This document shows positions 11,601-32,329 of a DNA stretch of 32,789 nucleotides, piece by piece (the stretch's first letter is position 1; each line of letters opens with the position of its first letter). Made by a program: the position numbers and the translations under genes. The stretch comes from a bacterium (lineage in GTDB: Bacteria > Bacillota > Clostridia > Christensenellales > Borkfalkiaceae): NCBI GenBank assembly GCA_963660735.1, contig CAVLAV010000001.1:1-32789 (forward strand), written 5' to 3'. The notes under the pieces were generated by a model. That model ran no database searches. It was not told the origin of the DNA and worked only from the letters and a program-made list of their open reading frames with translations.

Positions 11601-14600
11601 ACAGCGTAAATTCCGTGGAAAAAATCACTCTTGAAGAACTTGCGCACGCTTTCGAGGGGACAGAGGGATATTCGGATATAGCAAAAATGGCAACCGAGTA
11701 TTACGACGCGCACCCCGCAGAAAAGGCGAAAATCGAGAACGCGTATAAGGAACTCTACAAGAACGAAGAGGCTTTATTTGCAGAGGAAATTTTACCGTCA
11801 GAACTCACGGCACATTATGTGAGAGAAATGCTCGGAAACCGCAATATGCTTGCAAAACTTACGGCAGAAAAGCCGACGTTTATACAACGTTGCTTAAACT
11901 GGCTTAAAGGCTTTAAGAAAAAAACCGCCGCCGTCGATACGACGGTTGAGGCAGACGTACAAATTCTCGAAAACAGATTTAAGACGTTGTATAATCAAAA
12001 TAAGGGCAATGTTGCAAACGGTATTACAAATGCAAGCCGAATGAGTATAGCGTCTATTGACGGCAAAGATACAGTTATTGTTGATACCGACCAGCATATT
12101 TTTGACGGCGTACAACGCGAAGAACTCGGCAACGTTGCAAGAAAATATATTCAAGAACGTTTCAGAGGTAAAACGATTGACGGAACGACGTACAGCAGAA
12201 TATCTGAAAAAGAGTATACTCACTCAAAAGATACGCAAAGATTATTCAACCAGAGCGGATCGGAATATTCGGCAAAAATGCGAGCGTCAACGGAACTTAC
12301 AAACCTTGTAAAGACGGGTGAACTTATCGGGCACGAAAGCGCAAAGCATACAAAACCTGTAAATGCTGGCGGCTTTAACAGGTATAATGTGTCTTTCATT
12401 CTTGACGGAAAAACTTTCAAGGGCGAATTGCTTATCGCACAGGGCAGCGACAATGTTGCTACTTTTTACGATATTGTAAAAATAAAAGAGAGCAATTCGA
12501 CCAGTAACAACACACAGGTTGCAGGGCGGTCGAACGCTCTCTCTAATAACAGTATATCCAAAAATGGCGAAAAAGTCAACAAGAAATATGCTTTGTCGTC
12601 GAAAACAGATTCAGAGGGGCGAGTTTTATCTGCCGAACAGCAAAAATATTTTGCAGACAGCAAAGTTACCGACAACGACGGAAACCTGCTTGTGGTGTAT
12701 CACGGAACGAATAATGATTTTTATACGTTTGATAGCGGAAGAGTAGGCAAAGGCATAGACCAGTTCGGCTCAGGTTATTATTTTACTACAAATAAAGACC
12801 ACGCAGGTGCTTACGGAAACAGGACGATAGAGGGCTACTTAAATCTTAAAAACCCGTTTATTATTGAGGTGGGCGACAACGGCGGTACGATAGACCAGTT
12901 TTATAGGCAGTCCGTAACGCAATCTCAGGCAGAGAAAATACTCAAAATGCACCCAGATATTTATAGTGCGGACGATAGCCCTTTGGGTAATTTCAGCGAG
13001 AGATATTGGACTGAGGGCGCGACTGAATCGGTAATAAAAGAAGTTGCCGCTCAAATGAATGAAATCGGAATGTTTATTGACAACACAATGTTTGGCTATT
13101 ATCCGAACGAGTTGAATGCTGCCATAAAGAAAGTGTTAGGTTACGACGGTATTCAGGTTAATTACGGTAAACACGAAAAATATTATGTTGCGTGGGAACA
13201 AAACCAGATAAAAGACGTAAAAAATACAAGTCCTACTACTGCCGCAGATATTCGGTACGCGCTTTCCGAAGAACAGCAGGCTAAACTTGACAGTACAAAA
13301 GGCTCGGATAAGGTTATGACGGAATTGCCGAACAGCAGAGTTTCGGTTAAAGACGTTATAACAAAAGAGGCTACGAAAGAACAGTTTGCAGAACAAGTCA
13401 AGAGCGATACAAAACAATACACAGAGGGTTTTCAAATCGCTATGACGAATGCGCAGGCTGGCGTGGAGCGAGTTATGACCGAGGCGGGAATTAAGGACGC
13501 TACCGCAATAACAAACTATGTAAGAGCAGGAAAAAATGCAGGTATGAACGCATTAGATCCGAGTGGAGCACAATTTAGTTTTGACGGCGAAACGCGTTTA
13601 GGTGAATCGTGGGGCAAAATCTGGCAGCCGATTTATAATCTTGCAAAAAAAGACGGGCAGGCTTACGCAAAATTTCAGGAATATTTGTTGCATTATCATA
13701 ATATCGACCGTATGGCGGTCGGGAAACCCGTGTTTGGTGAGAATGTAACGGCGGCAGATAGCCGCGCGGCGATAGCGCAGATTGAATCGGTTTACCCGCA
13801 GTTTAAGAAAATTGCAGAAAAAGTCTGGAAGTTTAACGATAATAATTTGCAACTTTCGGTTGATAGCGGTATGTATTCGCAGGAATACGCAGACCACCTG
13901 AGGGAACTCTATCCGCACTACGTTCCGACGCTCAGAGAGGAGCACGCGGGCGGTATTGCAACCATACAGGGTAAAAACAACATTCGCGTAAACAATGCAA
14001 AAAAACAAGCAATCGGCGCAGATACTCGTATTTTGCCGATTGACGATACCATTGCTCAGCAGACTTTACAAAAATATGCGTCGGCAAGAACAAATAAATT
14101 GCTTGTAGACGTGCTTAACGGTAAAGCGCACGACGAGTTCAGAGTTGTTTCAACAGAGGACGCAAGCATTGACGTTGATACAGATACGCTTGTAAAAACC
14201 TTTGAGGATAAGACAAAAAATACCCACCAGATAACATTTTATCACGACGGTAAACGCGTTACGGTGGAAACGTCGCGAAACTTCTACAAAGGTATTGAGG
14301 CGTTCCAGCCGTCTGGCGATAGCGCGTTCAACAACGCTATCCTCAACGGCGCGGCGAAAGTAAACTCTGCGTTTAAGAAACTCGTTACGTCGTTTAACCC
14401 GTTCTTCTCATTCTTCCGTAACCCGATACGAGATATTCAGGACGCAGGGCTTTATACCCGCTATCCGCTCAGGAAATTTACGTCGGCGTATATGGAGGCG
14501 AGAAAGCAAATCGCAAGTGACGGTGTTTACTGGCAAGAGGCAAAGGCGGCGGGTATTACTTCCGCAAGCGTTTATGACTACGAAAAAGGTTTGAATTATA

Positions 14601-16198
14601 AAAATATGAGTGCTATCAAAAAAGCGGGGCAAAAGGTAGAGGCAGCCTCGAACGCTATTGAAATGGCACCCAGACTTGCAGAATACATTTGCTCGCGTGA
14701 GGCTGGTTTATCAGTTCAGGAATCGCTTTTGAGAGCGCAAGACGTTACCACGAATTTCGGCAGAGGCGGTATATTCGCAAAGAAACTCAACGCAACGATT
14801 ATGCCGTTCTTAAACCCCGCGATTCAAGGCTTTTCAAAAATGGTAAGAGCGTATACGGGTAAAGACGCGGCACAATCGTGGATAAATCTTATCGTTCGTA
14901 GTGTTATGCTCGGTATAGCGGCAACCGCTCTTAATGATTTGCTGCACGATGACGACGAAGATTATAACAATCTTTCCGATTACGTTAAAGAAAATAACTA
15001 TGTTTTGTCGTTCGGCGACGGGAATTTCCTTAAAATTCCGAAAGGCAGAGTGGTAAGCGTTTTCGGCGGCGCGTATCTGCGTTCGAAATGGTATGCTCAG
15101 GGCGACGAGGACGCTTGGGAGGGATATTTAAGCAGTATAGCCTCAGCGGTTACACCTGTTGATAACTTTACGCGTACTATTTTCAGTCCGATTACGGATA
15201 TAAAAACAAATACGACGTGGTATGGCGGCACTATCGAGGGGCAAAAATTCGACAGCACGAAACCTTCCGACAGATACGACGAAAGCACGAGTAATATCGC
15301 TATCTGGCTCGGCAAAGTGTTTAATTATTCGCCTAAGAAGATTGACTATTTGCTCGACCAATATGGCGGTATCGTAACGGATATTGTTTTACCAGCAACG
15401 ACAATGCAAGCGGAAAGCGGCATTGTATCGAAAAACTTGCTTGCGAACTCTACAACAAATAGCAGGTGGAGCACGGAATTTTACTCTCAGATAGAAAAAT
15501 ATACCTATAAAAAGACCGACGGCGACGCACAGGCGAAAGCGACGGTAAAATATCTGAACAGCGTTAAAAGCACTATTTCGGATATGTACACGCAAAAACG
15601 CCAAATACAGACCGATACGACGTTATCAAAAGACGAAAGACTAAGCCAGACGCAGGTTATTCAGGCGGCTATCAACACTCTAATGAAAGACAGTTTGACA
15701 AATGCAAAGTATTTATACGAAGAACTCGGCAAATACGACCTTTCCGACGATAATTTCGATATGAGTTATCTCGACGCGATAAGTACCGTAGTAGGCGCAG
15801 AATATGCGTTAAAATCGTATAATAAAACCGTGTATGAAAAGGCGGCAAACCTTAACAAACTCGGTATAAGTTACGATACATATTACGATTACTATTTTGC
15901 GACGAAAAGTATCGAGGCAGACGTTACGTCAAGCGGCAAAACGGTAAGCGGCTCTCGAAAACAAAAGTTGATACAATACACAATGTCAACCGATTTGGAT
16001 ATGGTGCAAAAACTCATTCTTATTATGAGTTCGGGGTACTCAATATCCGACGGCGATATTTCTGGCGTGTCGGCAAAGCAAGTAAAGCGTGTTGTGGCGC
16101 AATACATTGCAAAATCTGGGCTTTCTTCCGAAGAAAAAACCGCACTTGCAAAAATGTGCGGGCTTACGGTGAAAAACGGAAAGGTATATCTTTCTTAA
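5657..16198 (+). CDS. Giant multidomain polyvalent protein, 3513 aa (putative capsid-packaged, ejected effector)
   Basis: A single uninterrupted 10.5-kb ORF with AGGAG 7 nt upstream of the ATG. Modules readable in the translation:
- GxxxG-rich hydrophobic N-terminus
- K/E/T low-complexity linker
- beta-clamp-like segment (...AAYTD..., ...ACIMPMKP)
- MutS-domain-I-like GGEFYTALFDDAK
- HEWWH zincin motif at 10412-10426
- ART-like VVYHGT...GSGYYFT...YYVAWEQNQIK
- C-terminal ~1000 aa with a TM helix (WINLIVRSVMLGIAATALNDLL)
It sits in the portal-proximal head module. Confidence 0.75.
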   Translation: MAKQSLSQIFGNGTQGLSKNKQTLSQAFNFSPTEPRKEETIDYNNGGFLGGVGYVGGRIGLGALGILEGIWDYTAGGIAKIFGADEWAEQQFADNFTGDLTNDLNEWYNPSKGWQVAGDVAGGIGNSLVGMAVVAGASLISGGTLTAPVAAAISGATIGLGAAGQSTAEAYQKTGELGGKEFLYGALSGITEAGLEYVSGAAGKVGAKLFAKQTAKTVAKKSIVKGLLSDFAGEAFEEGMSEILDPYFQRWTQVDPDAKNATAQEVGYAALIGGLSGVIMGGFGEAVTTVRQIKLGNSIAQNTTSVNETLDYAKSFADYEQQHATGREVYTEISDLVTRYQAADKGDGTISVAQKKMLGQMSVDIAALVHDEGIQRSKQNIVANADELVNAINARGYKDADGNVIHFANAQEFVNNDAIVTRFATMDYLGHLLMSKDSVYDAISNKRAGEIMQADFRNFQKEATPQQKKSINDLFGIDVDSITYDDFVDKIQTTNSEVLTSKKAELSAMSAAKKEIARVINTNEAVADADTITEKTAFKDGISVFKVGEKTYAGISKTADGKYMLYLDGNISHVLTKTELVNAIKALVTPQSAATNAQTNVGQPQQAKQAAAPTVENTEGQSFVAKNTEATKENAAQGDKKSVKQAEKVKAKKKKTAKEKTESKKAVEKSTETKKTTEKSTEKAAEPKKAEKETTKKSESGKETTENNADNTNRQKEINKLKESPVATERVMGELCDLGVVDYDKVINTQDGQNIDAVAEYAMGDLSDYERQGLYSAKSLAKAISEHADEIRAGKKPYVEIMDRAIELDGKQMPKWYKEQYHSQSAESTERAAAKPTQKSETSEKKSAAKKRPKLDKARERLVSLTLSKDVRENLRGAYVMNGVQYVGDGLFCAAYTDTVSGLTEAKGGIDFGNIMDKYRNSNDMREVVIDADAIRAVVPAKKSELSISKIGDTYYNTKLVSRVIDTIDSPQAFLTEHKQTKDGFNIDVLYIKGKNGDACIMPMKPMNGERIKSDSVKIDYTASFADGTQAAAKTEQTAKPVKQSKAKKQAESTTKTETTDKSAGTELKKGFADGKGYKDFTVKEFKALSKDVQAYFRGKEAYSKSKKGNGKAVVLIQGGEFYTALFDDAKTVSDALSLTLTGKNSQAYSERIQTTAFSVAQFDEMQSKLAAVGYDVIKTSIDNQGAGTLYQAKTADSAAKEVAATDATAKTEKAAKTTKKQADFGEKIGGARKDEWAARGLTSADMEGMNAREIQKYAKKERVWKRPNWEQVVADGGDRGLLYAQNEIYKSLDTTPSSAFSYRNKSEADILAAAKLYADEITEIRKMAENAKTAEDFKDMGVKWITEKGYAELKNGRLTWTDKYYHSPALYGAQYLGVVERVAKRFDSLSESALMEGFGVPSDSKLPRGYEIRKTSNSFYGSKAETGNYYIVKSGYRVAVGFNTVEEAIAYGKEHFGTATTAAKAGKQRYVPEQLSEVHREGLDYRQGRDIAGDDYIRDFGIKGGEFGNWLSELDRKTSLNYGYDAFCDLADALSMEKTDISLNGTLNIGFGSRGQGLTGAAAHYEPLRKVINLTKMNGAGSLAHEWWHAFEDYISGDTHQSQMSSDLSKLPTNTRTAATELINTMLYRDGTVEENALASQKQADRNQQRLKYYLDNNFAALNGKMSKETMQNYVNQKYYKRMATEADFKRFAELKEQARKGDVQAVAKFYDNKRSVVDDLSDLQKEITGKGLSKEERLSLAHAVQDAGLKPDVKVKEKTEYYKDAMKLSTASQKDGGYWDSNCEMLARAFASYITDKTAKSNDYLSGHSEGAVLADDGTVAYIMPRGEERTRINAAFDKLFAAAKEDGLIHESTSEKPKNTSRYALSEQAELNSQPAGNKSQTLKPLEMKRAEIYARNNVKGYENLTYGEKLEVEWTIASGWRYGVDNVKIKQTAQIAADTGTGIGFADISAKSSDGKAKAVDGVCYSRSGHNTIYLSPDSVNSVEKITLEELAHAFEGTEGYSDIAKMATEYYDAHPAEKAKIENAYKELYKNEEALFAEEILPSELTAHYVREMLGNRNMLAKLTAEKPTFIQRCLNWLKGFKKKTAAVDTTVEADVQILENRFKTLYNQNKGNVANGITNASRMSIASIDGKDTVIVDTDQHIFDGVQREELGNVARKYIQERFRGKTIDGTTYSRISEKEYTHSKDTQRLFNQSGSEYSAKMRASTELTNLVKTGELIGHESAKHTKPVNAGGFNRYNVSFILDGKTFKGELLIAQGSDNVATFYDIVKIKESNSTSNNTQVAGRSNALSNNSISKNGEKVNKKYALSSKTDSEGRVLSAEQQKYFADSKVTDNDGNLLVVYHGTNNDFYTFDSGRVGKGIDQFGSGYYFTTNKDHAGAYGNRTIEGYLNLKNPFIIEVGDNGGTIDQFYRQSVTQSQAEKILKMHPDIYSADDSPLGNFSERYWTEGATESVIKEVAAQMNEIGMFIDNTMFGYYPNELNAAIKKVLGYDGIQVNYGKHEKYYVAWEQNQIKDVKNTSPTTAADIRYALSEEQQAKLDSTKGSDKVMTELPNSRVSVKDVITKEATKEQFAEQVKSDTKQYTEGFQIAMTNAQAGVERVMTEAGIKDATAITNYVRAGKNAGMNALDPSGAQFSFDGETRLGESWGKIWQPIYNLAKKDGQAYAKFQEYLLHYHNIDRMAVGKPVFGENVTAADSRAAIAQIESVYPQFKKIAEKVWKFNDNNLQLSVDSGMYSQEYADHLRELYPHYVPTLREEHAGGIATIQGKNNIRVNNAKKQAIGADTRILPIDDTIAQQTLQKYASARTNKLLVDVLNGKAHDEFRVVSTEDASIDVDTDTLVKTFEDKTKNTHQITFYHDGKRVTVETSRNFYKGIEAFQPSGDSAFNNAILNGAAKVNSAFKKLVTSFNPFFSFFRNPIRDIQDAGLYTRYPLRKFTSAYMEARKQIASDGVYWQEAKAAGITSASVYDYEKGLNYKNMSAIKKAGQKVEAASNAIEMAPRLAEYICSREAGLSVQESLLRAQDVTTNFGRGGIFAKKLNATIMPFLNPAIQGFSKMVRAYTGKDAAQSWINLIVRSVMLGIAATALNDLLHDDDEDYNNLSDYVKENNYVLSFGDGNFLKIPKGRVVSVFGGAYLRSKWYAQGDEDAWEGYLSSIASAVTPVDNFTRTIFSPITDIKTNTTWYGGTIEGQKFDSTKPSDRYDESTSNIAIWLGKVFNYSPKKIDYLLDQYGGIVTDIVLPATTMQAESGIVSKNLLANSTTNSRWSTEFYSQIEKYTYKKTDGDAQAKATVKYLNSVKSTISDMYTQKRQIQTDTTLSKDERLSQTQVIQAAINTLMKDSLTNAKYLYEELGKYDLSDDNFDMSYLDAISTVVGAEYALKSYNKTVYEKAANLNKLGISYDTYYDYYFATKSIEADVTSSGKTVSGSRKQKLIQYTMSTDLDMVQKLILIMSSGYSISDGDISGVSAKQVKRVVAQYIAKSGLSSEEKTALAKMCGLTVKNGKVYLS

Positions 16199-16236: not shown

Positions 16237-16995
16237 TTACTCGTTCTCTAACGGAATACTTTCTTGTTGCCACAGAAAATATCCGTCTACGATATTTTTC
16301 ATAAAAAAATCAGGATCGTTGTCAAATTCATTGTTGTCCAATTCGTCTAAAATTAACTGAAATATATCAGTAAATTGTTTGTCTGTTGTTGCTTGTCTTG
16401 TATAGAGATATATAAGCCCGTCTGCATTGAGAATATAATACAAGCAAAGCGCAGTGAGGGCGTTGCTGCGATTTTCTAAATTTTGTAAAGCATAACCGTA
16501 ATATTCTTGTAACAATGATATTTTTTCTTCTAAGCAGCGACGTTTCTTTTCAAAGTTATCAACCTTGCCCAAATCTTCTGCTATTCCGCGTGCTATATTC
16601 ATAAAGTCGCTACGCGATTTTAATATGACAAGTTTTGTAATATCGGCAATTTCTTCTTTGGGCTTTTGACTTGGTTTGTTCAGCGAGGGTACAATCATAA
16701 AGCGATAGCATAACGACAAAATAAATATAATTACACCTATGCCGAAACAAATTATACCAAATATAGGAGCGACTTCCGATAACGTTAATAAAAAGCCTAA
16801 TAAACACAAGCCCAGCCCGCCATAGAGCAAATTTTCAAAAACTCGTTTATTATGAGGGTTCATATCAAACCTGCCTAAAATAAAAAGTGCGCCGACCGAA
16901 GTCAGCGCACAAAAAACGCAAACTTCGTCGTCGCCAAACAACTTACAAAGATATATGTATGTAACTCTATCCCGTAAAATCTGCGTTTTTATCAA
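16237..16995 (-). CDS. Membrane-anchored hypothetical protein on the opposite strand (moron-like)
   Basis: The only convincing minus-strand gene inside the phage block. The longest ORF starts at TTG 16995. An internal ATG at 16863 (MNPHNKRVF...) is an alternative start. It has two clear TM helices (LLYGGLGLCLLGFLLTL, IFGIICFGIGVIIFILSL) followed by a ~140-aa helical soluble domain. It is flanked by its own promoter and terminator. Confidence 0.6.
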   Translation of the reverse strand: MIKTQILRDRVTYIYLCKLFGDDEVCVFCALTSVGALFILGRFDMNPHNKRVFENLLYGGLGLCLLGFLLTLSEVAPIFGIICFGIGVIIFILSLCYRFMIVPSLNKPSQKPKEEIADITKLVILKSRSDFMNIARGIAEDLGKVDNFEKKRRCLEEKISLLQEYYGYALQNLENRSNALTALCLYYILNADGLIYLYTRQATTDKQFTDIFQLILDELDNNEFDNDPDFFMKNIVDGYFLWQQESIPLENE

Positions 16996-17128: not shown

Positions 17129-17244
17129 TGAAAATGCGGGTGTCTAACAATGTTAAACTTGCCGTTTTCTCATTAAAACGCTTGAAAAGATAAACGTGCT
17201 GGGGCAAAGTAATATTTTTCGGGTACAATTTTGAGTAAATAGTA

Positions 17245-17253
17245 TGATATAAT
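17245..17253 (+). promoter_or_regulatory. Candidate extended -10 promoter for the Com-like gene
   Basis: TGaTATAAT at 17245-17253, about 30 nt upstream of the RBS. No good -35 element, so this is weak evidence. Confidence 0.35.
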
Positions 17254-17284
17254 TACAATGCAAAACGGTGTAAAGGAGCGCATT

Positions 17285-17455
17285 ATGTCTTTTCAACTTG
17301 AAGAAATACCGAAAGATACAGAGGTAAAAAAGGCGATTTGCCCGCATTGTAAAAAGACGATACACGCAGTCGGTTTTACGAAAGGCAGTAAATGTCAGGG
17401 AATAACCGTTGTCTGTAAGTTCTGCGGGCGTATTTATTCCATAAAAGCCGATTAG
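17285..17455 (+). CDS. Small zinc-ribbon protein, phage Mu Com-like
   Basis: ATG at 17285 lies 7 nt after AAGGAG. The 56-aa product has two CxxC pairs (CPHCKK ... CKFCGR) spaced like Com-type zinc ribbons. The upstream M at 17258 in the ORF track has no RBS. Confidence 0.5.
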   Translation: MSFQLEEIPKDTEVKKAICPHCKKTIHAVGFTKGSKCQGITVVCKFCGRIYSIKAD

Positions 17456-17500
17456 CAAAAATTGCATACACACATTTAGTGCCAAAGTCCGAAGAGATTT

Positions 17501-17547
17501 GAGCCCCCACTCTTGCCAGTAAGAGATTAGGGGGCTCATTTTCTTTT
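17501..17547 (+). terminator. Intrinsic terminator after the Com-like gene
   Basis: GAGCCCCC (17501-17508) pairs with GGGGGCTC (17530-17537). There is inner CTCTT/AAGAG pairing, and the stem is followed by ATTTTCTTTT. Confidence 0.75.
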
Positions 17548-19085: not shown

Positions 19086-20135
19086 ATGAGTATTATTTTC
19101 TCTAAACTTGCGGGCGCGAACGATCCGTATATCGGAAAGTTTGAACACCCGATTAAAGCACTTATCGAAAACGAGAGCAACGACCTCGAAAAAAAGAAAA
19201 CCCTGCTTGACGTTCTCTACAACGTCGAAAAATCGAAACGTTACGCCGAAACCGTAATGGGACAAGGCGATTTCGGTTTATTCCAGAGCGCGAAAGAGGG
19301 TGCGGGTGCGGAAAACGACGCGCCTGAGGGTGGTTTCAAAAAGACGATTGAGCATATTCCCTTTATGAAAGAGTTTACTATCACAAAGGAAATGCTCGAC
19401 GACGCGAAATTCGGACTTCCCGCAGAGTTCAGAAACAGACCGAAAGGGTTTATCCGTTCGTATTACAGAACGCGCGTTAAACTCGGCGCGTGGGCTTTGG
19501 CGCACGGCACGAGCGCAAGCGGCACGTTTAACAAGGCTACCGTCGATTTAACCGTGGGCGACGGCTTGCCGCTTTTCCACAACGCACATAAATACGCCGC
19601 AACGAAATTCAAAGGCAAAACGCAGTCGAATTTCTATTACGACGATAAACTTTGCGGCGATACCGCGAAACTTGAAAAATCTCTCGGCGTTCTCGCGAAC
19701 AAAATGCGTAACTTTAAGGACGAAAACGGCGAAACGCTCGGCTATACGCCCGATATTATCGTGTTACCGTCCAACCGCCCCGAACTCGAAATCGACGTTA
19801 AAAAGGTTATCGGTTCGGAAAGAACGACTGGTACGGACTACAACGATATCAATACGCAGTACGGCAACTGGACTATCGTAATTCTCGACGGCTGGGAAAC
19901 CGACGACGACAGATTTATGCTTATGTCCTCCGAGGCAAACGAGAATTTGCTCGGCAATATGTTCTACAACCGCGTTGCGCTCGATATTAAGAGCGAGGTT
20001 GATATTCATACCCGTAACCTTATTTACAACGGTTACTGCCGTATGGGTATAGGTTTCTCGAACTGGAAACACATTTTGCTTGCCGTCAAATCTTCGTCCG
20101 CAGTTACCAACGCCACCGATTTGGCACTTGCTTAA
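19086..20135 (+). CDS. Major capsid protein
   Basis: A 349-aa ORF with a GGAGG RBS, downstream of the scaffold gene and followed by a structured, terminator-like region. The translation has the general look of Mu gpT / lambda E-type capsid proteins (N-terminal ...DPYIGKFE..., C-terminal ...YNGYCRMGIGFSNW...). Confidence 0.7.
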   Translation: MSIIFSKLAGANDPYIGKFEHPIKALIENESNDLEKKKTLLDVLYNVEKSKRYAETVMGQGDFGLFQSAKEGAGAENDAPEGGFKKTIEHIPFMKEFTITKEMLDDAKFGLPAEFRNRPKGFIRSYYRTRVKLGAWALAHGTSASGTFNKATVDLTVGDGLPLFHNAHKYAATKFKGKTQSNFYYDDKLCGDTAKLEKSLGVLANKMRNFKDENGETLGYTPDIIVLPSNRPELEIDVKKVIGSERTTGTDYNDINTQYGNWTIVILDGWETDDDRFMLMSSEANENLLGNMFYNRVALDIKSEVDIHTRNLIYNGYCRMGIGFSNWKHILLAVKSSSAVTNATDLALA

Positions 20136-21177: not shown

Positions 21178-23826
21178 ATGGCGTATTCATTTAAGACAAA
21201 GGAAAATCTCAGCAAAGGAACGACTGAATATAACAGATATTACGGCAGTTTCAGGGGCGTTGACTTTTCCAACGACCATACGCAAGTAAACTCGTCGCGG
21301 CTTGCTTATGCCGTAAATATGTACAAAGATTATCGCAGTAAGCAAGGCGTTGCGCTGGAAACCGTCGCAGGCTTTCGTAAACGCTGTTATTTTGCGAAAA
21401 AACCGACAATCGACGCAAACGGAAAAGCGACTGGCTTATTTACGGAAACCAGCGAAAAAGAAATTTACGGCATTATCTATTTTCAGCATAAATCGGACGA
21501 TACAGTAAAAACAAGCGTGCTCGTTCACAGCGGCAAACGCCTTTATTTGTGGCGTAATTATCCGCTCTCAATGAATGTGCCGACGGCGGGCAAAATAACG
21601 CTCTCAGAGCCTGTTTCAGAGGTTGAAACAAACGGTACGACGATTAAGACTTTCAACGTTACATTGCCGTTTTCTTGCGAGGCTGTAATCGGTCTGCATA
21701 GGCAAACGGGCGAGGATATTACGCTCAATATTTCAAAATATACAGCGTCAAGCAAGACGCTGGAAATCGTAAGTTCCGAACTGCTTGCAGAGGAAATGCT
21801 CGATATTTCGTATTATGAGGGCGTATCAAAGGATAGCAACTTGCTTTTTTCGTCTATGAACGAACATAAGAGTCAGCACTTTGTTTTTAATAACAGGCTG
21901 TATATTCTGGACGGGAAAAATTATCTCGTATACGACGGCAGCAGTATTTCGCAGGTAAAAAATTCCGCGTATATTCCGACAACGTATATCGGCATAATTC
22001 CCGCTGGCGCAAATGCGGATATAGGCACAGAGTACGAACAGCGCAATCTTCTTACGCCGAAATTTAAGCATACGTTTGTTGCCGACGGAACGACGAAAGA
22101 ATTTTTAATGAACGAGAACAATCTCGATTCCGTCGTTTCCGTTAAAGTTTACGGTGCGACAAAAACGGTAGGTACCGATTATACGGTAGACCTTACAAAC
22201 GGCAAAATAACCTTTACCGCCGCTCCCGCAAAACCCGAAAATTCGGGCTACGAACAAGGTTATGCGGGCATTGAAATAACAGCGTCAAAAGTATATACGT
22301 CAATAGACGGCGTAACCGATAATATGTCGGATATTTCGGAATTGATTTCAAAGTGTACGCTTTGTACGACTTATGACGGCAGGGTTTTCTGCACGGGAAA
22401 CCCAGATTATCCGAATTACGTTTTTTATTGCGGCAGGAACAGTACGGGCTACGCAGATCCGTCTTATTTCTGCATTCTCAATTATATGCAGGACGGTGTG
22501 GGGTTATCGCCCATAACGGGCATTATGTGCGTTTCTGATACGCTTATGGTGCTTAAAGCGGACACACAACAGGATAGTTCGATTTATTTTCATACTGCGA
22601 CAGACAGCAGTCAAAATTTACTGCCGCGCATTTATCCGTCCGTTCAGGGCTTATCTGGACTGGGTTGCGTCGGGGCGTGCTGCAACTTCCTTGACGATCC
22701 GATTTTTATTTCTCGGCTCGGCGTTGAGGGCGTTTCACAGTTAAAAATATCGTCCGAAAGAGCGAACGAGCATAGGTCTTACCTTATCGACGCAAAACTC
22801 GTTAATTCCGAACTGAAAAATTGCGTACTTGAAGAGTGGGGCGGCTATTTGTGTCTTTTGGTAGACGGAAACATTTTTCTTGCCGACAGCAGACAAAAAT
22901 ACGCCGACGAAACAGGCGCATTGCAATACGAGTGGTATTACTTAGAGGGTATCGGCGTTTATGACGGACAATATAAAGAGTATCACTATTCAAGCATTTT
23001 GCCGACCGAGTTCAAAGATATAAAGATAACCCACGAGGATATAGAGTACGATATAGAACTTGCACAGGCGGTATATTATTCCGATACGGACGAAACGAAA
23101 GATTTGCGCGGTACGGTTGCAAATTCGGCAGACGACAGCGGAAACGAAAGCCGTCAGGTATATTCGCAGTTTGTAACGGCGAATTTCAACGGTATGGAAA
23201 TACAGGTAAATATATTCTATACCATTCACGAAGTCGTTGATATTTTCACGAATACGGTTAAAGAAAGGCATTTGTATTTATGCGAAGAATACGGCAATTA
23301 CACGGGCGGCGTTTTCAAAAAAGCAACTACGCTTAGTTCGATAGACGATAATTTGTTCTTTGGCTGCGTAAACGGCGTTGTATGTTCTTTTAATTTCGAC
23401 CAAAGGAACGACGACGGCGAATTGCCGCCGAAAACATACAATTTCGACGAAAGAACGATTTTCAGCGGGTGCGCCACGCTTATGGATAACTGTCAAATTC
23501 CGCACCTTACAAAAACCACGATAAAGCGTTCTACGGTTATAAAAACAAAGTCTTTCCGCAATTCTGCCGCAAAGATTAAAGTCAGAACAAACAAAACTCC
23601 GTATAAGCAAATAGCGCGTATCAACAGTGCGTTGTTTTCGTTTGAAGATATGGACTTTTCCGATTTCTCTTTCAATACTACCGAGCAAAGCCTTTTTGCG
23701 GTAAAAGAAAAAGAGAAACAATGGGTTGAAAAGCAGTATTTTATTTATTCCGACGAGTATCTGAAACCGTTTGCGCTCTATTACGTTTCGTTCAGATACA
23801 GAGTGGCTGGACGATACAAAGAATAA
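21178..23826 (+). CDS. Large virion structural protein (putative tail or nozzle component)
   Basis: An 882-aa ORF tightly packed (3-nt gap) after the previous gene and lying before the tail fibre gene. It is beta-rich. Function inferred from position only. Confidence 0.4.
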   Translation: MAYSFKTKENLSKGTTEYNRYYGSFRGVDFSNDHTQVNSSRLAYAVNMYKDYRSKQGVALETVAGFRKRCYFAKKPTIDANGKATGLFTETSEKEIYGIIYFQHKSDDTVKTSVLVHSGKRLYLWRNYPLSMNVPTAGKITLSEPVSEVETNGTTIKTFNVTLPFSCEAVIGLHRQTGEDITLNISKYTASSKTLEIVSSELLAEEMLDISYYEGVSKDSNLLFSSMNEHKSQHFVFNNRLYILDGKNYLVYDGSSISQVKNSAYIPTTYIGIIPAGANADIGTEYEQRNLLTPKFKHTFVADGTTKEFLMNENNLDSVVSVKVYGATKTVGTDYTVDLTNGKITFTAAPAKPENSGYEQGYAGIEITASKVYTSIDGVTDNMSDISELISKCTLCTTYDGRVFCTGNPDYPNYVFYCGRNSTGYADPSYFCILNYMQDGVGLSPITGIMCVSDTLMVLKADTQQDSSIYFHTATDSSQNLLPRIYPSVQGLSGLGCVGACCNFLDDPIFISRLGVEGVSQLKISSERANEHRSYLIDAKLVNSELKNCVLEEWGGYLCLLVDGNIFLADSRQKYADETGALQYEWYYLEGIGVYDGQYKEYHYSSILPTEFKDIKITHEDIEYDIELAQAVYYSDTDETKDLRGTVANSADDSGNESRQVYSQFVTANFNGMEIQVNIFYTIHEVVDIFTNTVKERHLYLCEEYGNYTGGVFKKATTLSSIDDNLFFGCVNGVVCSFNFDQRNDDGELPPKTYNFDERTIFSGCATLMDNCQIPHLTKTTIKRSTVIKTKSFRNSAAKIKVRTNKTPYKQIARINSALFSFEDMDFSDFSFNTTEQSLFAVKEKEKQWVEKQYFIYSDEYLKPFALYYVSFRYRVAGRYKE

Positions 23827-23839
23827 GCGAGGTAACAAT

Positions 23840-25480
23840 ATGAGCGAAACAAAAACTTTACAAAAAATAACCGCTACGCAGATTACGAAAAACGGCGTTC
23901 AGGCGTTAGCAACGCGTCCGAACAATTCTTCGCAATACGGACAAGGCGGGTTATCCCCGACGGAATTAAAACTGTGGTTCGATAAACTTGCCACGTTTCT
24001 GGCTGGTAAAATCAATGAAATTCAAGACGCAATCTGCGGCGAGGACGCAGAAAGTTATATCCGCGTTGTTCTCGACGATTACGGCGTAAAAACACTGAAA
24101 GACCTTACCGAGGCGTTCATAAGCGGCGATTTTGCAAATAAAATTCTTAAACTTTATCCCACTGCGTCGGCAACGACGAAACAAACGCTGCAAGTGATTA
24201 TAAACAGTCTTGCCGCACAAATAATAAGTAACGATACGGATATTGCGACTCTTGAAAGCAAGAAACTCGATAAAGTAACTGCTACAAACACATATAAGCG
24301 GGCTTACATAATTATGCCCGACGGTTCGCAGGCTACCGTTCTTATTTCAGAAAGCCCTCTTGCTGGCGCAATTCCGCTCTATAACGCGAAAAATCAACTT
24401 TTTTGTGCAATTCCCACGGAGGCAAACGGCGCGACGAATAAGGGCTACACGGACACGCAGGACTTATTGCTCGGCTCGCAGATTGACCTTTCGATAGATA
24501 AATCTACCTACAAAATGAAAGCGGTACTAAAAAACTTTGAGGGTACTGTTTTAAGCGAAAGTAAGGAAATCGACTTACCGCTCGAACAAATGATTATTAA
24601 GGGCAGTTATAATGCGGCGACGAAAAAACTCACTTTAACGCTCCGAAATAATCAAGAGGGGGTTGATAATAACTCTATTGAAATTGATATATCCGACCTT
24701 ATCGACGGGCTTGTTTCCGAAACCCGAACGATAAACGGTAAACCGCTTAGCGGTAACATTGTGCTTTCCGCTGCCGACGTGGGGGCTTACAAGAAAAGCG
24801 AAACGTATTCAATGAGCGAAATCGACCAAAAAGAAATTTACGCTCACGCGGCTTTTTGGGCAGAAGAATCGGAACACGCGCGAAACTACACAAAGGGCGG
24901 CGGTATCGACAGAAAATTCAGGCGATACGACGACCTGCTTGCCGCCGCTGGGTTTAGCGTCGATGTATCACTCGACACGTCGAATTATCAACTTACCATA
25001 TCCCTTAAAAACAGCGAGGGCAAAGTTTTAAGTTCGGGTATGGTTGATTTGCCTATCGAAAGCCTTATATCCAACGGCTCGTATAAGAACGGAATTTTAA
25101 CTCTTACGTTGCAAAGCGGCAACGTTATAAATATCGACGTTTCTTCGCTTATAAGCGGGCTCGTTGCGGATAGCAGGAAAATCAACGGCAAGCCGCTTAC
25201 TGCGGATATTGTACTTACTGCCGCCGACGTAGGGGCTGCCGCAAGCGGCGACGTTTACAAAAAAGCGGAAACCTACTCGAATACAGAAATCAATAAGAAA
25301 GTTTCCGACGCTTGTCAGGAATTGAGAGTAACGATAGAAAACGAACACCAGAGCGTCGGCTCGTCTTATTACTCGGTAGAGGCTGAAAAAGCCGCTGGCT
25401 ATACAAAGGGCGGCGAAATCGACAAAGCAATTAAATCAATCAAAGATAGGCTCACGAGCCTTGAAAATAACAATCAATAA
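23840..25480 (+). CDS. Tail fibre protein with an internal ~160-aa duplication
   Basis: ATG at 23840 after GAGG. The longer track ORF from 23771 overlaps the previous gene. It carries two copies of the fibre-type motif INGKPL(S/T)xxIVL(S/T)AADVGA and of the surrounding module. Confidence 0.65.
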   Translation: MSETKTLQKITATQITKNGVQALATRPNNSSQYGQGGLSPTELKLWFDKLATFLAGKINEIQDAICGEDAESYIRVVLDDYGVKTLKDLTEAFISGDFANKILKLYPTASATTKQTLQVIINSLAAQIISNDTDIATLESKKLDKVTATNTYKRAYIIMPDGSQATVLISESPLAGAIPLYNAKNQLFCAIPTEANGATNKGYTDTQDLLLGSQIDLSIDKSTYKMKAVLKNFEGTVLSESKEIDLPLEQMIIKGSYNAATKKLTLTLRNNQEGVDNNSIEIDISDLIDGLVSETRTINGKPLSGNIVLSAADVGAYKKSETYSMSEIDQKEIYAHAAFWAEESEHARNYTKGGGIDRKFRRYDDLLAAAGFSVDVSLDTSNYQLTISLKNSEGKVLSSGMVDLPIESLISNGSYKNGILTLTLQSGNVINIDVSSLISGLVADSRKINGKPLTADIVLTAADVGAAASGDVYKKAETYSNTEINKKVSDACQELRVTIENEHQSVGSSYYSVEAEKAAGYTKGGEIDKAIKSIKDRLTSLENNNQ

Positions 25481-25497
25481 TAACAGGAGGACAAACA

Positions 25498-26607
25498 ATG
25501 TTATTAGAAAAAACAAAAATCTATGGCGTTGACGGCGTGGGGAACTCTACGCCCACGCTTACCAGAACGGACGCTGCGGCGGGGCTTTCTTATGCTCGCG
25601 GCGTGAGTGAAATCACGAGCGACTTCGACAAGTGTTTCCCGTGGTGTGAAATGAAAGAGGTTGTGGACGAATACGGAAACGTGTTTATTCGCATACCGAA
25701 ATTTTATACCAAAATCACGAAAAACGACGACGGCTCTTACAAACACCAAATTTCTGGTTGCCGTTACGACGGGTTCGGAACTCTTTTTGTTGACGGAAAA
25801 GGCAATGAACTCGATTATATCCTTGTCGGAAAATACGAGGGTTCTGCGGTTGCGTCGGGTGATACAAATTACGACGCAAGCAATGCGAAAGTTAAGTCGA
25901 AATCGGGGCAGACCGTTCTCGTAAATATTACGAGAGGAACGTATAGAACGCGTTGCCGTAACGTGGGTAAGGGCTACCAGCAGTACGATTTTTTAATTGA
26001 CGCAATCATTAAAGAATTGTTTATGATTGAGTTCGCAACCACGAACTCGCAGAGCGTAATGCAAGGCTGGACGGACGGCTCGAATACCGCCGCGCTTGTT
26101 ACGGGGCATACCGACCTTGTAAAAACCGCGTCGGGCTCGTGGAATACTAACCACGTTGAGGACTGCGCGACTTGCAACACGGACGGTAAGCACGCCTGCA
26201 AGTATAGAGGTATCGAAAACCCGTTCGGCAATGTCTGGAAATGGTGCGACGGTATCAATTTTGACGTTGAAAAAATTTATGTCTGCGAAGATCCCGAATT
26301 TTATGCCGACGATAAACACGACGCGCCTTATACCTATATGGGCGACAGACTTATGTCTGAGGGTTATTTGAAAGAGGTTACGCCGTTTGCTAAAAACCCT
26401 CTCTTAGGTTACGCAACCGCGATAGGCGCGAGCAGTACGACGTATTATAGCGACTATTATTACGTCAACAACACGGGCACCGTGTTGTTCTGCGGCGGGT
26501 ACTGGTATAGCGGCGCGCTTGCGGGGCTCTGGGGCTGGAATGGGCGCTACACCGCGTCGTACGCGAACTCGGACATCGGCGGGCGTCTTTGTTATAAACC
26601 TCTTTGA
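25498..26607 (+). CDS. DGR target protein: C-type-lectin/FGE-like receptor-binding tail protein carrying the VR at its C-terminus
   Basis: AGGAGG RBS. Positioned right after the tail fibre gene. The last 43 aa (TVLFCGGYWYSGALAGLWGWNGRYTASYANSDIGGRLCYKPL) are encoded by the VR and have the CGG.W...IGxR pattern typical of CLec-fold DGR variable regions. Confidence 0.85.
   Translation: MLLEKTKIYGVDGVGNSTPTLTRTDAAAGLSYARGVSEITSDFDKCFPWCEMKEVVDEYGNVFIRIPKFYTKITKNDDGSYKHQISGCRYDGFGTLFVDGKGNELDYILVGKYEGSAVASGDTNYDASNAKVKSKSGQTVLVNITRGTYRTRCRNVGKGYQQYDFLIDAIIKELFMIEFATTNSQSVMQGWTDGSNTAALVTGHTDLVKTASGSWNTNHVEDCATCNTDGKHACKYRGIENPFGNVWKWCDGINFDVEKIYVCEDPEFYADDKHDAPYTYMGDRLMSEGYLKEVTPFAKNPLLGYATAIGASSTTYYSDYYYVNNTGTVLFCGGYWYSGALAGLWGWNGRYTASYANSDIGGRLCYKPL
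26480..26593 (+). repeat. DGR variable region (VR)
   Basis: A gap-free 114-bp alignment to 26694-26807 (offset 214). 98 of 114 positions are identical, and all 16 differences fall at adenines of the other copy. Confidence 0.9.
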
Positions 26608-26616
26608 GGGGGCTAA

Positions 26617-26634
26617 CGGGGGAAACTTCCCCCG
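26617..26634 (+). promoter_or_regulatory. GC-rich hairpin downstream of the VR (DGR target-recognition hairpin; may double as a terminator)
   Basis: CGGGGGA aact TCCCCCG: a 7-bp stem with a 4-nt loop, 23 nt after the end of VR/TR homology and followed by an A/T-rich run. Confidence 0.6.
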
Positions 26635-26693
26635 AAAAAAGAAAAATTTTTCTCACAGTTATCTATAAAAATGGGGTTATAAACCGAACACAG

Positions 26694-26807
26694 CCGTGTT
26701 GAACTGCGGCGGGAACTGGAATAACGGCGCGAATGCGGGGCTCTGGAACTGGAATGGGAACAACACCGCGTCGAACGCGAACTCGAACATCGGCGGGCGA
26801 ATTTGTT
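26694..26807 (+). repeat. DGR template region (TR)
   Basis: The invariant, adenine-rich copy of the VR. It has 28 adenines, 24 of them in 12 AAY (Asn) codons when read in the VR frame. It is non-coding, located between the target gene and the RT. Confidence 0.9.
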
Positions 26808-26946
26808 GCAAAAGGAATAAAAACAGGGTTTATAATTCACAGACCACTTGGTCAGAAATAGCCGTAAAGAGTGTGGTTTAGTAAGTCGAAAGAATTTGAA
26901 ACACCATAAGGCAGCAACAAAGACTCTTTGAAAAATAAAGGACACA

Positions 26947-27990
26947 ATGAAACGAACAGGATATTTATTTGAAAAAATAGTGTCGAAAGATAACATTATT
27001 TTAGCCATACATAATGCGACGAAAAATAAAAAATCGAAGCGTGGAATTATTAAAGACGCTGCGGAAAACCCCGAACGTTATGCGGATAAAATACGAGAAA
27101 AACTAATCAGCGGAAATTACTATTTTGCCCCGCCGATATTAAAAACTCGGCGGGAGCATAAGAAAATCAGGCATATAAAAGTGCCGAAATTCTATCCAGA
27201 CCAGATTATACATTGGGCACTTATGCAAGTAATCGAGCCGATAATAAATCGCGGAATGGATAGATACTGCTGCGGTTCTGTCAAAAATCGCGGAACACTT
27301 GCGGCAAAGAGAGCAATCGAGCATTTCATTAAGAAAGATAAACGTATAAAATACGTTATGAAAGCGGATATACACCATTTCTTTGAATCGGTAGATATTG
27401 AGGTGTTAAAGCAAAAATTTCGCCGTGTAATTAAAGATAAAAAGGTATTGAAACTTATCGACGAAATACTCGATAACGGAGGTGCAGGCTTGCCGATAGG
27501 TTACTACACCTCGCAGGCATTCTCAAATTTTTACTTGCAACGTTTCGACCACGAAACGAAACAAGATTTGCGTATTAAGCATTATGCGCGATATGCGGAC
27601 GACATTGTGTTTCTGGACGCGAACAAAAGGAAATTGCATAAAGCAAAAATCGCGTTCGATAAAAGTTTGGGTAAAGAAAATTTGAAACTTAAACACGATT
27701 GGCAAATCTGGAAATTCGGCAGCCGACCTATTGATTTTGTCGGTTACAGATTTTACGGGAAATACACCGTTTTAAGAAAGAAAATGTTTTACTCACTAAC
27801 CCGCGCCGTCCGAAAAATAAAACGTTTCGGTGTGAGATTAAGGCAAGTAATGAGGTTTTTATCGTATATGGGCTGGGCGAAACGTATCAATTTCAAGAAG
27901 TATTACGTCGAAAATATAAAGCCCGTTATCACAAAAGGCAATGCGTGTAAATTTATGGCGCATAACGCAGCCGTATTGTCAGCGGCTTAA
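26947..27990 (+). CDS. DGR reverse transcriptase
   Basis: A 347-aa protein with the YADD catalytic motif (27592-27603, ...YARYADDIVFLD...). It has the DGR-diagnostic IGxxxSQ motif (IGYYTSQ, 27496-27516) and an N-terminus typical of these RTs (LFEKIVSKDNIILAIHNATKNKK). It lies 139 nt downstream of the TR. Confidence 0.9.
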   Translation: MKRTGYLFEKIVSKDNIILAIHNATKNKKSKRGIIKDAAENPERYADKIREKLISGNYYFAPPILKTRREHKKIRHIKVPKFYPDQIIHWALMQVIEPIINRGMDRYCCGSVKNRGTLAAKRAIEHFIKKDKRIKYVMKADIHHFFESVDIEVLKQKFRRVIKDKKVLKLIDEILDNGGAGLPIGYYTSQAFSNFYLQRFDHETKQDLRIKHYARYADDIVFLDANKRKLHKAKIAFDKSLGKENLKLKHDWQIWKFGSRPIDFVGYRFYGKYTVLRKKMFYSLTRAVRKIKRFGVRLRQVMRFLSYMGWAKRINFKKYYVENIKPVITKGNACKFMAHNAAVLSAA

Positions 27991-28013
27991 ATCTATTATG
28001 GAGGTAAATTAAA

Positions 28014-28205
28014 ATGGCAGCAAAACGTTTCAGTAAGCAAAAGTGGCTTGAAAAGGCGAACGCGCAAATCGCGCAGGGGTTTCTCTCGGAAAGAGAGCGC
28101 GACGACGCGCTTGAAATCTGGGTAAACGACCTTGACGGCAAAACTTACGAAGAAATAACCGCGAACGGAAACGAGTTCAGCGACGATTATTTCGTAATCA
28201 ATTAA
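28014..28205 (+). CDS. Small hypothetical protein, 63 aa
   Basis: GGAGG RBS 8 nt upstream. It lies 23 nt after the RT stop. The protein is acidic and helical. No family recognised. Confidence 0.5.
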   Translation: MAAKRFSKQKWLEKANAQIAQGFLSERERDDALEIWVNDLDGKTYEEITANGNEFSDDYFVIN

Positions 28206-28215
28206 GAGGCACGCT

Positions 28216-28674
28216 ATGAAAATGGAATACAAACTCATTGAATTTGTTAAAAAGGGCTTTATTTTAACAAGAGAGCCCGAAGTCGTTGCAGACGAACTTA
28301 TTATCACGTTTACAGGCGCGCCAGACGGGGCGACGGCAGTTTTTGAAAATGCGGGCTGTGATAGTCTTTATCGCGTGCTTGAAAAGGGAACGTGCAGCGT
28401 TCCTGCGGACTTTCTGGACAGCATTGTAAAATGTACCGTCGTTGTTCTAAACGGCAAGCCAGACGCGCCGAAATACGCGTGTGAAAGTATCTATGTAAAA
28501 CGTATTGACGGCAAAGTAATTTGCTGCCCGAACGGCGTAGACACGCCGCTGCAAATAATTGCTGTTCTCTCGGAAATTCAGGACATAAAAAACGACATTG
28601 CCCACCTGAACAACGAACAGTCAAAAATTGTGAAAAAACTCGATAGGCTTATCGAGGGTTACGACTTTGAATAA
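28216..28674 (+). CDS. Hypothetical protein, 152 aa, with a C-terminal coiled coil
   Basis: AAGAGG RBS. The N-terminal part is beta-rich and the C-terminus is helical (IQDIKNDIAHLNNEQSKIVKKLDRLIEG). Possibly fibre-associated, based on position. Confidence 0.45.
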   Translation: MKMEYKLIEFVKKGFILTREPEVVADELIITFTGAPDGATAVFENAGCDSLYRVLEKGTCSVPADFLDSIVKCTVVVLNGKPDAPKYACESIYVKRIDGKVICCPNGVDTPLQIIAVLSEIQDIKNDIAHLNNEQSKIVKKLDRLIEGYDFE

Positions 28675-31244: not shown

Positions 31245-31273
31245 TTGAAAAATGTTAGACAATGTGGTATAAT
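31245..31273 (+). promoter_or_regulatory. Near-consensus sigma70 promoter of the transposase gene
   Basis: TTGAAA (31245-31250), a 17-nt spacer, then TGgTATAAT with the -10 hexamer at 31268-31273. Confidence 0.7.
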
Positions 31274-31303
31274 AGCGGTACTTTCACGACGGAGGGAAAA
31301 TAT

Positions 31304-32329
31304 ATGAGGGGTATGAGATTTACCGCTAACCAGAAAAAGCACGCTCTCAAATTGTGGCTTGTAGACAAGAAAGATATTACGAAAGTTGCATATCTGACAA
31401 AATGCGACGAGCGTACTTTATGGCGGTGGAAAGCAAAATATGACGGAACGCTGGAAAGCCTGCAAAACGGCTCGACCGTTCCGCATACGCCGAGCCCTAA
31501 GGCTCATACCCAGATCGAAATCGAACACATAAAGAAAATATTTGAGGAAAGCCCCGATATAAGTTATGCGGAGGCTTACGGTGTTTTACGCAGCGAGTTC
31601 GCCTATTCAAGAACGTATTTCGGTTTTTGGCGTTTCGTTTCTAAAAACGGAATACGCCAGCCGAAAGAGATTGTGCAAAAATACGTTGAGCAGCCATACA
31701 ATACGCCTGAAATGTTCGGTATAAAAGTGCAAATGGACGTGAAAGTCGTTCCGAAAGAATGTAAAACGGGCGAATTTAAGCACGAGAAAGACTTTCAGTA
31801 CACAATGATTGACGAGGCTACCCGCGAAAGGTTTATTTATCCGTACAAAGAGCAGAGTACATTTTCGACCGTAGATTTTGTAAAAAGAGCGTTCGTATAT
31901 TTCGGGTATCTGCCTGCAATCGTTCAGACAGACAACGGAACAGAGTTTACCCCACCGAAGAACGCAAAAGAAACAACGATAAACGCAGTAGACCAGTTTT
32001 TAATGAAATACAACATTGTTCATAAACTTATAAAGCCTCGCACACCGCGCCATAACGGAAAAGTCGAACGCTCGCACAGAACCGACCAAGAATGTTTTTA
32101 TAATCACTTGCAATATTCCACGTTCGAGGAACTGAAAGAAAAAATGGCTGAATGGCTTAACCGATACAATAATCGACCGCACTCGTCGCTTAGAAATCGC
32201 GAGGGAAAGCGCGTCTGGCTTACGCCGTTGCAAAAGCGAGCCGAACTTATGGAAGATTATAAGAAAAACGGGTTTAAGGACGAAAACGATAAGGAAATTA
32301 AAATTCGTTTTCTTAAAAAGTCGGCATAA
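31304..32329 (+). CDS. DDE transposase, rve/IS481-like
   Basis: ATG at 31304 lies 7 nt after GGAGGG. There is an N-terminal HTH (ITKVAYLTKCDERTLWRWKAKY). The DDE triad context is VQMDVKVV, VQTDNGTEF and PRHNGKVERSHRT. Confidence 0.8.
   Translation: MRGMRFTANQKKHALKLWLVDKKDITKVAYLTKCDERTLWRWKAKYDGTLESLQNGSTVPHTPSPKAHTQIEIEHIKKIFEESPDISYAEAYGVLRSEFAYSRTYFGFWRFVSKNGIRQPKEIVQKYVEQPYNTPEMFGIKVQMDVKVVPKECKTGEFKHEKDFQYTMIDEATRERFIYPYKEQSTFSTVDFVKRAFVYFGYLPAIVQTDNGTEFTPPKNAKETTINAVDQFLMKYNIVHKLIKPRTPRHNGKVERSHRTDQECFYNHLQYSTFEELKEKMAEWLNRYNNRPHSSLRNREGKRVWLTPLQKRAELMEDYKKNGFKDENDKEIKIRFLKKSA

Follow-up and report, generated by a model that had tools for sequence, protein, structure and literature searches.

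An apparently functional, accessory-gene-free diversity-generating retroelement at the tail-fibre locus of an uncultivated gut phage

The DNA analysed here is a 32,789-nucleotide stretch (the window) comprising positions 1 to 32,789 of the forward strand of contig CAVLAV010000001.1, GenBank assembly GCA_963660735.1. At positions 25498–27990 a tail gene, a pair of near-identical repeats and a reverse transcriptase (RT) gene follow one another. The locus raises the question of whether it is a diversity-generating retroelement (DGR) that rewrites the end of the tail gene and, if so, how it manages without the accessory protein Avd. The answer reached below, with a probability of about 0.9, is that it is a functional DGR of the accessory-gene-free type, in which the template repeat (TR) and the RT stand alone; its carrier is a temperate gut phage with podovirus-like features whose hosts are Clostridia, probably Christensenellales. 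The element is of a canonical and well-known kind; it belongs to the simpler type without Avd and resides in an uncultivated phage group.

A repeat finder returned one long direct repeat, 26480–26598 versus 26694–26812, with 85% identity, and scans of both strands of the window detected no further copy. The 114-nt core of the repeat pairs positions 26480–26593 with positions 26694–26807, both on the plus strand, at an offset of 214 nt and with a gap of 100 nt between the two copies. The copies differ at 16 positions, each of them an adenine in the downstream copy, and the 86 non-adenine positions of that copy are identical in the upstream one (86/86). The downstream copy contains 28 adenines, and the hypergeometric probability that 16/16 mismatches fall on them is 2.4e-12. 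Read in the frame of the upstream copy, it also contains 12 AAY codons. The adenine-only mismatches and the AAY codons identify the downstream copy as the TR and the upstream copy as the variable region (VR). The VR encodes residues 328–365 of the 369-residue target protein (gene 25498..26607, plus strand) and its mutagenised part extends from ~26488 to 26575. The TR begins 86 nt past the target stop codon (26605–26607) and is intergenic; a 61-residue open reading frame (ORF) that runs across it (26696–26881) is merely an inherited reading frame. The original prediction, made from the letters alone, had placed a non-coding, near-identical 114-bp template at this distance from the target, and had described a target with a variable end, a template and an RT adjacent to one another in the order target-TR-RT. 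All three were recovered at the positions it gave. At the level of sequence, every feature by which DGRs are recognised is present at this locus.

Activity was assessed by comparison of related contigs and proteins. Six contigs from IMG/VR encode RTs that are 98–99% identical to the RT of the window, and their DNA is 90–94% identical to it over the shared 8–11 kb. Seven VR/TR pairs were compared, those of the window, of five close contigs and of one 69% relative (L001 and L003–L007). The 123 mismatches between these VRs and their own TRs are all located at TR adenines, with none at any other base, and, of the 27 columns with adenine in every TR, 25 differ among the VRs. Non-adenine polymorphisms that distinguish the TRs of the relatives are copied exactly into the cognate VR in 5/5 instances. 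The restriction of VR differences to adenines, together with the mirrored TR changes, points to repeated, directional transfer from TR to VR with adenine mutagenesis. Moreover, the VRs are distinct from one another, yet at non-adenine positions each remains identical to its cognate TR despite a background divergence of 6–10%, which argues for repeated recent homing. An exact scan of IMG/VR with the adenine-masked TR pattern yielded no match because the relatives differ at 3–5 non-adenine positions.

The protein sequences show the same pattern. The two closest 90%-identity clusters of the target contain 130 and 626 distinct sequences, and 23 full-length, near-identical target proteins carry 23 different VR peptides. 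Among these 23 proteins, 13 of the 14 hypervariable columns (at least four residue types) coincide with codons that contain a TR adenine, and entropy averages 2.33 bits at TR-adenine residues versus 0.075 bits elsewhere. Polymorphism confined to TR-adenine positions, the check that had been proposed for the original prediction, is thus found among related contigs and proteins, and the description of the locus as a hypermutation system gains support from the adenine-restricted VR diversity and from the copying of TR into VR. As judged from these sequence comparisons, the DGR is genuine and recently active.

The RT gene (26947..27990, plus strand) is an intact ORF of 347 codons. Its product matches Pfam RVT_1 (5.8e-16) and phrog_1423 of PHROGs, annotated 'Reverse transcriptase' (2.9e-88). 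It contains the motif LPIGYYTSQ, with IGYYTSQ at residue 184, and YADD at residue 216, both of which had been read correctly at the outset. The DGR signature is [I/V/L]GxxxSQ, in contrast to the QGxxxSP of group II and retroviral RTs (PMC7826257). The best sequence match among solved structures is 8ub7_A (328 residues; E = 6.5e-26, 94.7 bits), which aligns with residues 3–306 at low identity. The residue numbering of 8ub7_A in this alignment (R74, I181 and Q187) agrees with that published for bRT, which identifies the structure as the Bordetella phage DGR RT. Residues R74 and I181 of bRT promote adenine mutagenesis (PMC7826257) and their equivalents are conserved here as R75 and I184. The next solved match is the group II intron RT GsI-IIC (4e-14), and retron and Drt RTs follow with weaker scores. 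When the RT protein was looked up in the contig index by exact match, no record was returned. By its signature motif, its YxDD motif and its best PDB relative, the RT is assigned to the DGR class.

These results also bear on the possibility that the locus is not a DGR at all, that is, that the RT belongs to another class (group II intron, retron or defence RT) and that the repeat is a duplication kept similar by gene conversion. The top raw NCBIfam match of the RT is indeed a group II RT/maturase model, at 101 bits; however, the cut-off of that model is 300 bits, and the NCBIfam models for group II, retron, Drt and Abi RTs all score far below their cut-offs. A search of positions 26300–28300 with Rfam found no intron or retron RNA, only the RT-18 motif discussed below, and the RT motif is IGxxxSQ rather than QGxxxSP. 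In addition, mismatches that are all at adenines in 7/7 pairs, and likewise in 115 relatives, are not expected from duplication or gene conversion. This explanation is therefore given almost no weight.

The target is a predicted tail-fibre-tip protein with a C-terminal variable region. Comparison with Pfam, NCBIfam and PDB sequences produced no match, and only PHROGs and fold comparison were informative. The PHROGs match is to phrog_5302, 'tail protein' (9e-66). The AlphaFold model, calculated with 63 homologues, has a mean confidence (pLDDT) of 76.9 and a predicted TM-score (pTM) of 0.82. The sole significant PDB fold matches of the model are three chains of TaqVP (PDB accession number 5VF4; probability 1.0, E = 6e-5), the DGR variable protein of Thermus aquaticus, which adopts a C-type-lectin (CLec) fold and shares 15% sequence identity with the target. 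Unlike the phage target, TaqVP is a cellular protein. With TaqVP as the only significant match, the predicted fold lends support to the CLec-type variable region that had been proposed from the sequence. In BFVD the target matches many proteins automatically annotated 'Tail collar fiber protein', and in one protein of 961 residues (A0A8S5S5L3, 66% identity) the target domain forms the C-terminus of a long fibre. Throughout the homologues, the variable domain occurs either as a stand-alone protein of ~360 residues or as the C-terminus of proteins of 402–961 residues (P0009–P0034 and P0070). The existence of stand-alone and fused forms indicates that fibre shaft and tip are split or fused depending on the phage.

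The gene immediately upstream of the target (23771..25480, plus strand) matches phrog_23008, 'tail fiber protein' (2e-16), and phrog_17472, 'tail protein'; its product probably serves as the shaft that carries the variable protein. This fibre gene contains an internal tandem duplication with a module of ~477 nt (repeats 24527–24555/25004–25032 and 24675–24697/25053–25075), seen in the protein as repeated 'DLP(L/I)E...INGKPL...IVL(S/T)AADVGA' segments.

The term tail receptor-binding protein, used in the original prediction, would follow from the gene position, the PHROGs annotation and the matches to the automatically named tail collar fibre proteins. Alternatively, a true DGR could diversify a protein that does not bind the host receptor; this might be a virion-surface adhesin that recognises something else, such as mucin or glycans, or might function in the lysogen. 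The target is encoded by a separate 369-residue ORF and is not part of the fibre itself, which is compatible with such a role, as is the derivation of receptor binding from annotation and gene position. Nonetheless, the gene lies right behind the tail-fibre gene, where the structural module ends, the same domain terminates long fibres in other phages, including the 961-residue protein above, and there is the precedent of Mtd in phage BPP-1 (PMC5758913). A target that does not bind the receptor is considered unlikely, and the target is taken here as a putative receptor-binding tip.

How the copied information would find its way back to the target gene is suggested by the 3′ end of the VR (26577..26598, plus strand), which resembles an initiation of mutagenic homing (IMH) element. 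It begins with a G/C block, CGGCGGGCG (26577–26585), followed by two fixed differences at 26586–26587, where all six close VRs have TC and every TR has AA. Because these positions are invariant in the close VRs, though 26586 is a synonymous third position, they are regarded as fixed IMH/IMH* differences rather than products of mutagenesis. Two of the 16 mismatches are thus not ascribed to hypermutation. The mutagenised zone ends between 26575 and 26586, and 26 mutable adenines remain after this refinement of the boundary, which corresponds to about 2e15 possible proteins. By analogy, CGGCGGGCG and the fixed differences would correspond to the GC-rich element (GC14) and the IMH/IMH* of Bordetella. 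In a further close relative (L002) the TR, at positions 165–278 of its contig, has GGGCTAATTT in place of the GGGCGAATTT of all others, a change within the IMH* G/C block; this contig begins inside the target gene, which confines the comparison to its TR.

Ten nucleotides past the target stop codon, a GC-rich hairpin, CGGGGGA-AACT-TCCCCCG (26617..26634, plus strand), is predicted in the DNA. Of 116 loci from this RT lineage, 94 have a comparable GGGGG/CCCCC hairpin, mostly with a loop of 4–5 nt, no more than 70 nt behind the VR, and 8 have one behind the TR. Such an asymmetry between the VR and TR sides is as expected of the hairpin/cruciform downstream of the VR that serves target recognition in BPP-1 (PMC3240598, PMC12875486), and by this analogy the hairpin is likely to be a target-recognition hairpin or cruciform. 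The G/C block, the IMH versus IMH* differences and the inverted repeat downstream of the VR, which are the DGR target-recognition elements, are all present, and their function is proposed by analogy with the Bordetella system (PMC3240598). An intrinsic terminator was considered for the hairpin and ruled out, as no T-run lies behind it and the terminator scan does not list it.

Avd is encoded by about 74% of DGRs and is not universal. In the window, a Pfam scan of 56 ORFs of 63–260 residues (E ≤ 0.1) detected no Avd/23S_rRNA_IVP family. The precomputed Pfam matches of a 43.5-kb relative (L146) likewise include no Avd, and none is found among the families listed for 144 small RT-flanking ORFs in 52 diverse relatives, which comprise tail chaperones, holins and lysins. 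The VR-TR-RT order is seen in 115/145 relatives of the RT, with VR-TR gaps mostly of 56–180 nt and TR-RT gaps mostly of 105–146 nt, which leave no room for a gene. Two genes downstream of the RT (63 and 152 residues) were considered as Avd substitutes and rejected; they match no family in Pfam, PHROGs or NCBIfam and, by eye, do not resemble basic helical bundles. Elements that consist of TR and RT without an accessory gene form architecture A, which accounts for 29% of 372 DGRs in the survey of Wu et al. 2018, where RT 'Lineage 3' is without avd (PMC5758913). The window element shares the layout of their architecture A1, namely the order target-TR-RT, a VR at the C-terminus of the target, and no Avd, HRDC, MSL or CH1 gene. 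Since this architecture is recognised, the absence of Avd represents a known variant and not a defect. The earlier description of the DGR as complete therefore holds for an accessory-gene-free architecture, with the qualification that no Avd gene is present.

If the protein cofactor is missing, the RNA may take on a larger part. A covariance-model search placed the RNA motif RT-18 (Rfam RF03021) in the TR-RT spacer at 26842..26921 on the plus strand, with 51.4 bits versus a gathering score of 41.3 and over model positions 1–84 of 84. The match thus spans the full model and, like RT-18 (PMC5737381), lies immediately upstream of an RT gene. It starts with a CUUG hairpin of 4 bp; an A-rich stretch comes next, and then a helix interrupted by a UAGUA/GAA internal loop (26879–26883 and 26897–26900). 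RT-18 occupies the same place in 20/20 diverse relatives tested, and all 22 examples inspected have it between a genuine TR and the cognate RT. RNAalifold applied to 78 non-redundant loci revealed compensatory changes in 11 of the 12 predicted RT-18 pairs. The UAGUA/GAA loop of RT-18 has been scored as a strong sarcin-ricin motif in a 2026 paper, which reports the same motif in RT-10, the family of the Bordetella spacer, and in several other RT-n motifs (PMC13085918). The occurrence of this motif in all of these families hints at a shared RT-docking element.

RT-18 also accompanies the closest isolated phage by RT similarity, Lactobacillus phage LBR48 (NC_027990.1; 41% identity over 98% of the length), although it belongs to a different genus and has a different host. 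In LBR48 the RNA (702–777) is directly upstream of the annotated RT gene and is preceded by an AAC-rich, TR-like stretch (region 560–822). A VR was not found in the 7 kb of the LBR48 record that were examined (first 3 kb and last 4.2 kb). A blastn search of INPHARED phages with the whole element gave no match.

The TR itself is enclosed by a second RNA element. The sequence GGGUUAUAAACC (26674..26685, plus strand), the 12 nt just upstream of the TR, pairs with GGUUUAUAAUUC (26827..26838, plus strand), 3 nt upstream of the first RT-18 hairpin. The resulting TR-closing helix lies beyond the Rfam RT-18 model and is continuous with it. In 78 non-redundant relatives the best ungapped stem between the flanks has a mean length of 10.8 bp and reaches at least 8 bp in 69/78, versus a mean of 6.2 bp for shuffled flanks, 17% of which reach 8 bp. 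The central pairs of the helix change compensatorily between lineages. In a crude anchored register, 68% of the cells are canonical, versus 41–49% when the partner strand is slid. The helix was recovered neither by RNAalifold on a MAFFT alignment, in which the flanks are misaligned and hence the helix is missed, nor by a column-wise register search. The evidence for the helix therefore comes from the per-sequence stem search and the anchored register.

The arrangement resembles the 'cPRT Stop' seen by cryogenic electron microscopy in the Bordetella ribonucleoprotein, where cDNA synthesis requires the avd:Sp duplex, which marks its end point (bioRxiv 10.1101/2023.10.23.563531). In both systems a duplex between the region upstream of the TR and the spacer is followed by a short tetraloop hairpin and adenosines, unpaired in the Bordetella RNA; the putative counterparts in the window are the covarying TR-closing duplex, the 4-bp CUUG hairpin and the A-rich stretch. 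The cPRT Stop study surveyed only Avd-containing DGRs (bioRxiv 10.1101/2023.10.23.563531), in which an Avd-binding stem-loop lies just downstream of the TR, whereas the linker of ~19 nt between the TR and the 3′ strand of the helix here contains no visible stem-loop. Avd and the Avd-binding RNA stem-loop are both absent, so the two absences go together. No convincing candidate for a priming adenosine or for template:primer pairing emerged from the sequence.

These features suggest that RT-18 and the TR-closing helix together make up the entire RNA scaffold in a lineage of Avd-independent DGRs. In these, the RT alone, with an RNA of ~270 nt (26674–26921), would carry out self-primed, adenine-mutagenic cDNA synthesis. 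The cPRT Stop layout and the sarcin-ricin loop would have been kept, and the Avd-binding stem-loop would have been lost along with Avd. We lean slightly towards this proposal, at little better than even odds. The link between an orphan RNA family, the TR-closing helix and Avd-less DGRs is the modest new content of this analysis. The survey of Wu et al. (PMC5758913) does not describe these RNA elements. The motifs RT-1 to RT-19 were defined by Weinberg et al. 2017 as RNAs near RT genes; only RT-10 was assigned to a DGR, as the spacer of BPP-1, and the presence of other RT motifs in DGRs was offered as speculation (PMC5737381). No paper that links RT-18 to DGRs was found in the literature library searched.

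Overall, the element closely parallels the Bordetella BPP-1 DGR (mtd-avd-TR-brt). In both, the target is a phage tail-fibre protein that ends in a CLec-type VR (predicted for the window target), the TR precedes the RT, mutagenesis is specific to adenines and involves AAY codons, and a G/C block is followed by fixed IMH/IMH* differences. In both, too, the VR is followed by a GC hairpin whose loop has 4 nt, and the RT is of the IGxxxSQ type with the R74 and I181 positions conserved. Unlike BPP-1, the window element has no avd gene, its VR-TR gap is just 100 nt, and its spacer belongs to RT-18 and not to RT-10.

Several points weigh against a functional, receptor-directed DGR. The VR portion of the target model has a pLDDT of 48–73, and the global TM-score of the model to TaqVP is just 0.40. 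The binding of a receptor by the target is deduced indirectly, as set out above, and the activity of the element in this phage is deduced from comparison between relatives. Finally, Avd was not found, though the one DGR that has been studied well cannot function without it; the gene for a cofactor may lie beyond the 32.8-kb window or in the host genome. The comparative nature of the evidence for activity in this genome and the failure to find Avd would both fit a decayed or presently inactive DGR, in which the repeats and the RT are relics and the VR differences reflect past activity only. However, the RT ORF is intact and retains the catalytic YADD, and the RNA elements and the post-VR hairpin are intact and conserved. 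Moreover, each close relative has its own VR that has stayed identical to the cognate TR at non-adenine positions while the genomes diverged by 6–10%, and the target clusters hold hundreds of distinct members. Inactivity is consequently judged very improbable, and a working DGR remains the preferred explanation.

In such a working DGR, a transcript over the TR and spacer would fold such that the helix formed by 26674–26685 and 26827–26838 closes the TR, with the RT-18 structure directly after it. The RT would bind this folded RNA and copy the TR into cDNA, possibly primed by the spacer itself, faithfully at U, C and G and with random bases opposite A, and synthesis may terminate at the closing helix, perhaps with no protein cofactor. 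The cDNA would then replace the VR at the 3′ end of the fibre-tip gene, to which the IMH-like end and the downstream GC hairpin could direct it. The 12 AAY codons and two further codons would be rewritten in this way, altering the ligand-binding face of the CLec-type domain.

For annotation, the element pinpoints what determines host range or adhesion in a group of uncultivated gut phages, the relatives of which reside as prophages in Christensenellaceae and other Clostridia. It also bears on how DGRs work without Avd, a question that has stood since the 2018 survey. With the TR enclosed by a covarying helix leading into RT-18, in a cPRT Stop-like layout from which the Avd-binding part is missing, Avd independence becomes testable with the RT and ~270 nt of RNA. 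If the proposed scaffold is correct, the orphan Rfam family RT-18 would gain a function and the element would represent a minimal two-component DGR, widespread in gut Firmicutes phages. It would also suggest that the DGR-based systems for directed evolution now under construction in E. coli could make do with fewer components.

The window as a whole is a phage structural module. It begins with the terminase large subunit (69–1400) and a P22/SU10-like portal (1400–3370). Between the portal region and the head genes lies the gene for a polyvalent protein of 3513 residues (5657–16198, plus strand) with MutS_I, LPD1, ART-PolyVal (ADP-ribosyltransferase) and LPD38 domains; its counterpart in the 43.5-kb relative L146 has 3504 residues. 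The major head protein (19086–20135) is followed by an SU10-adaptor-like protein, the tail-fibre gene (23771–25480) and the DGR. Two minus-strand ORFs without family matches, 16237–16995 (252 residues) and 17153–17539 (128 residues), interrupt the plus-strand module; at the corresponding place L146 has a gene for a 112-residue Flg_new-domain protein.

Relatives of the RT at 68–70% identity are found in metagenome-assembled genomes of Christensenella, Christensenellaceae and other Clostridia, where they lie on large contigs, which indicates that the phages are temperate and that the host is probably a member of that group. A metagenome-assembled genome of Peptococcia (JBMNJH01) contains several partial RTs that cover query residues 73–315 only, lie on different contigs (L128–L133) and are without the VR-TR-RT arrangement; they may represent a different, multi-copy RT element. 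Downstream of the DGR, positions 31262–32329 (plus strand) encode an IS481-like DDE transposase/integrase with a Pfam rve match and an NCBIfam IS481 score of 158 bits, under the cut-off of 224. The gene lies in a region that aligns with phage contigs L001, L002 and L006, and it may thus belong to the phage as its integrase and not represent an insertion.

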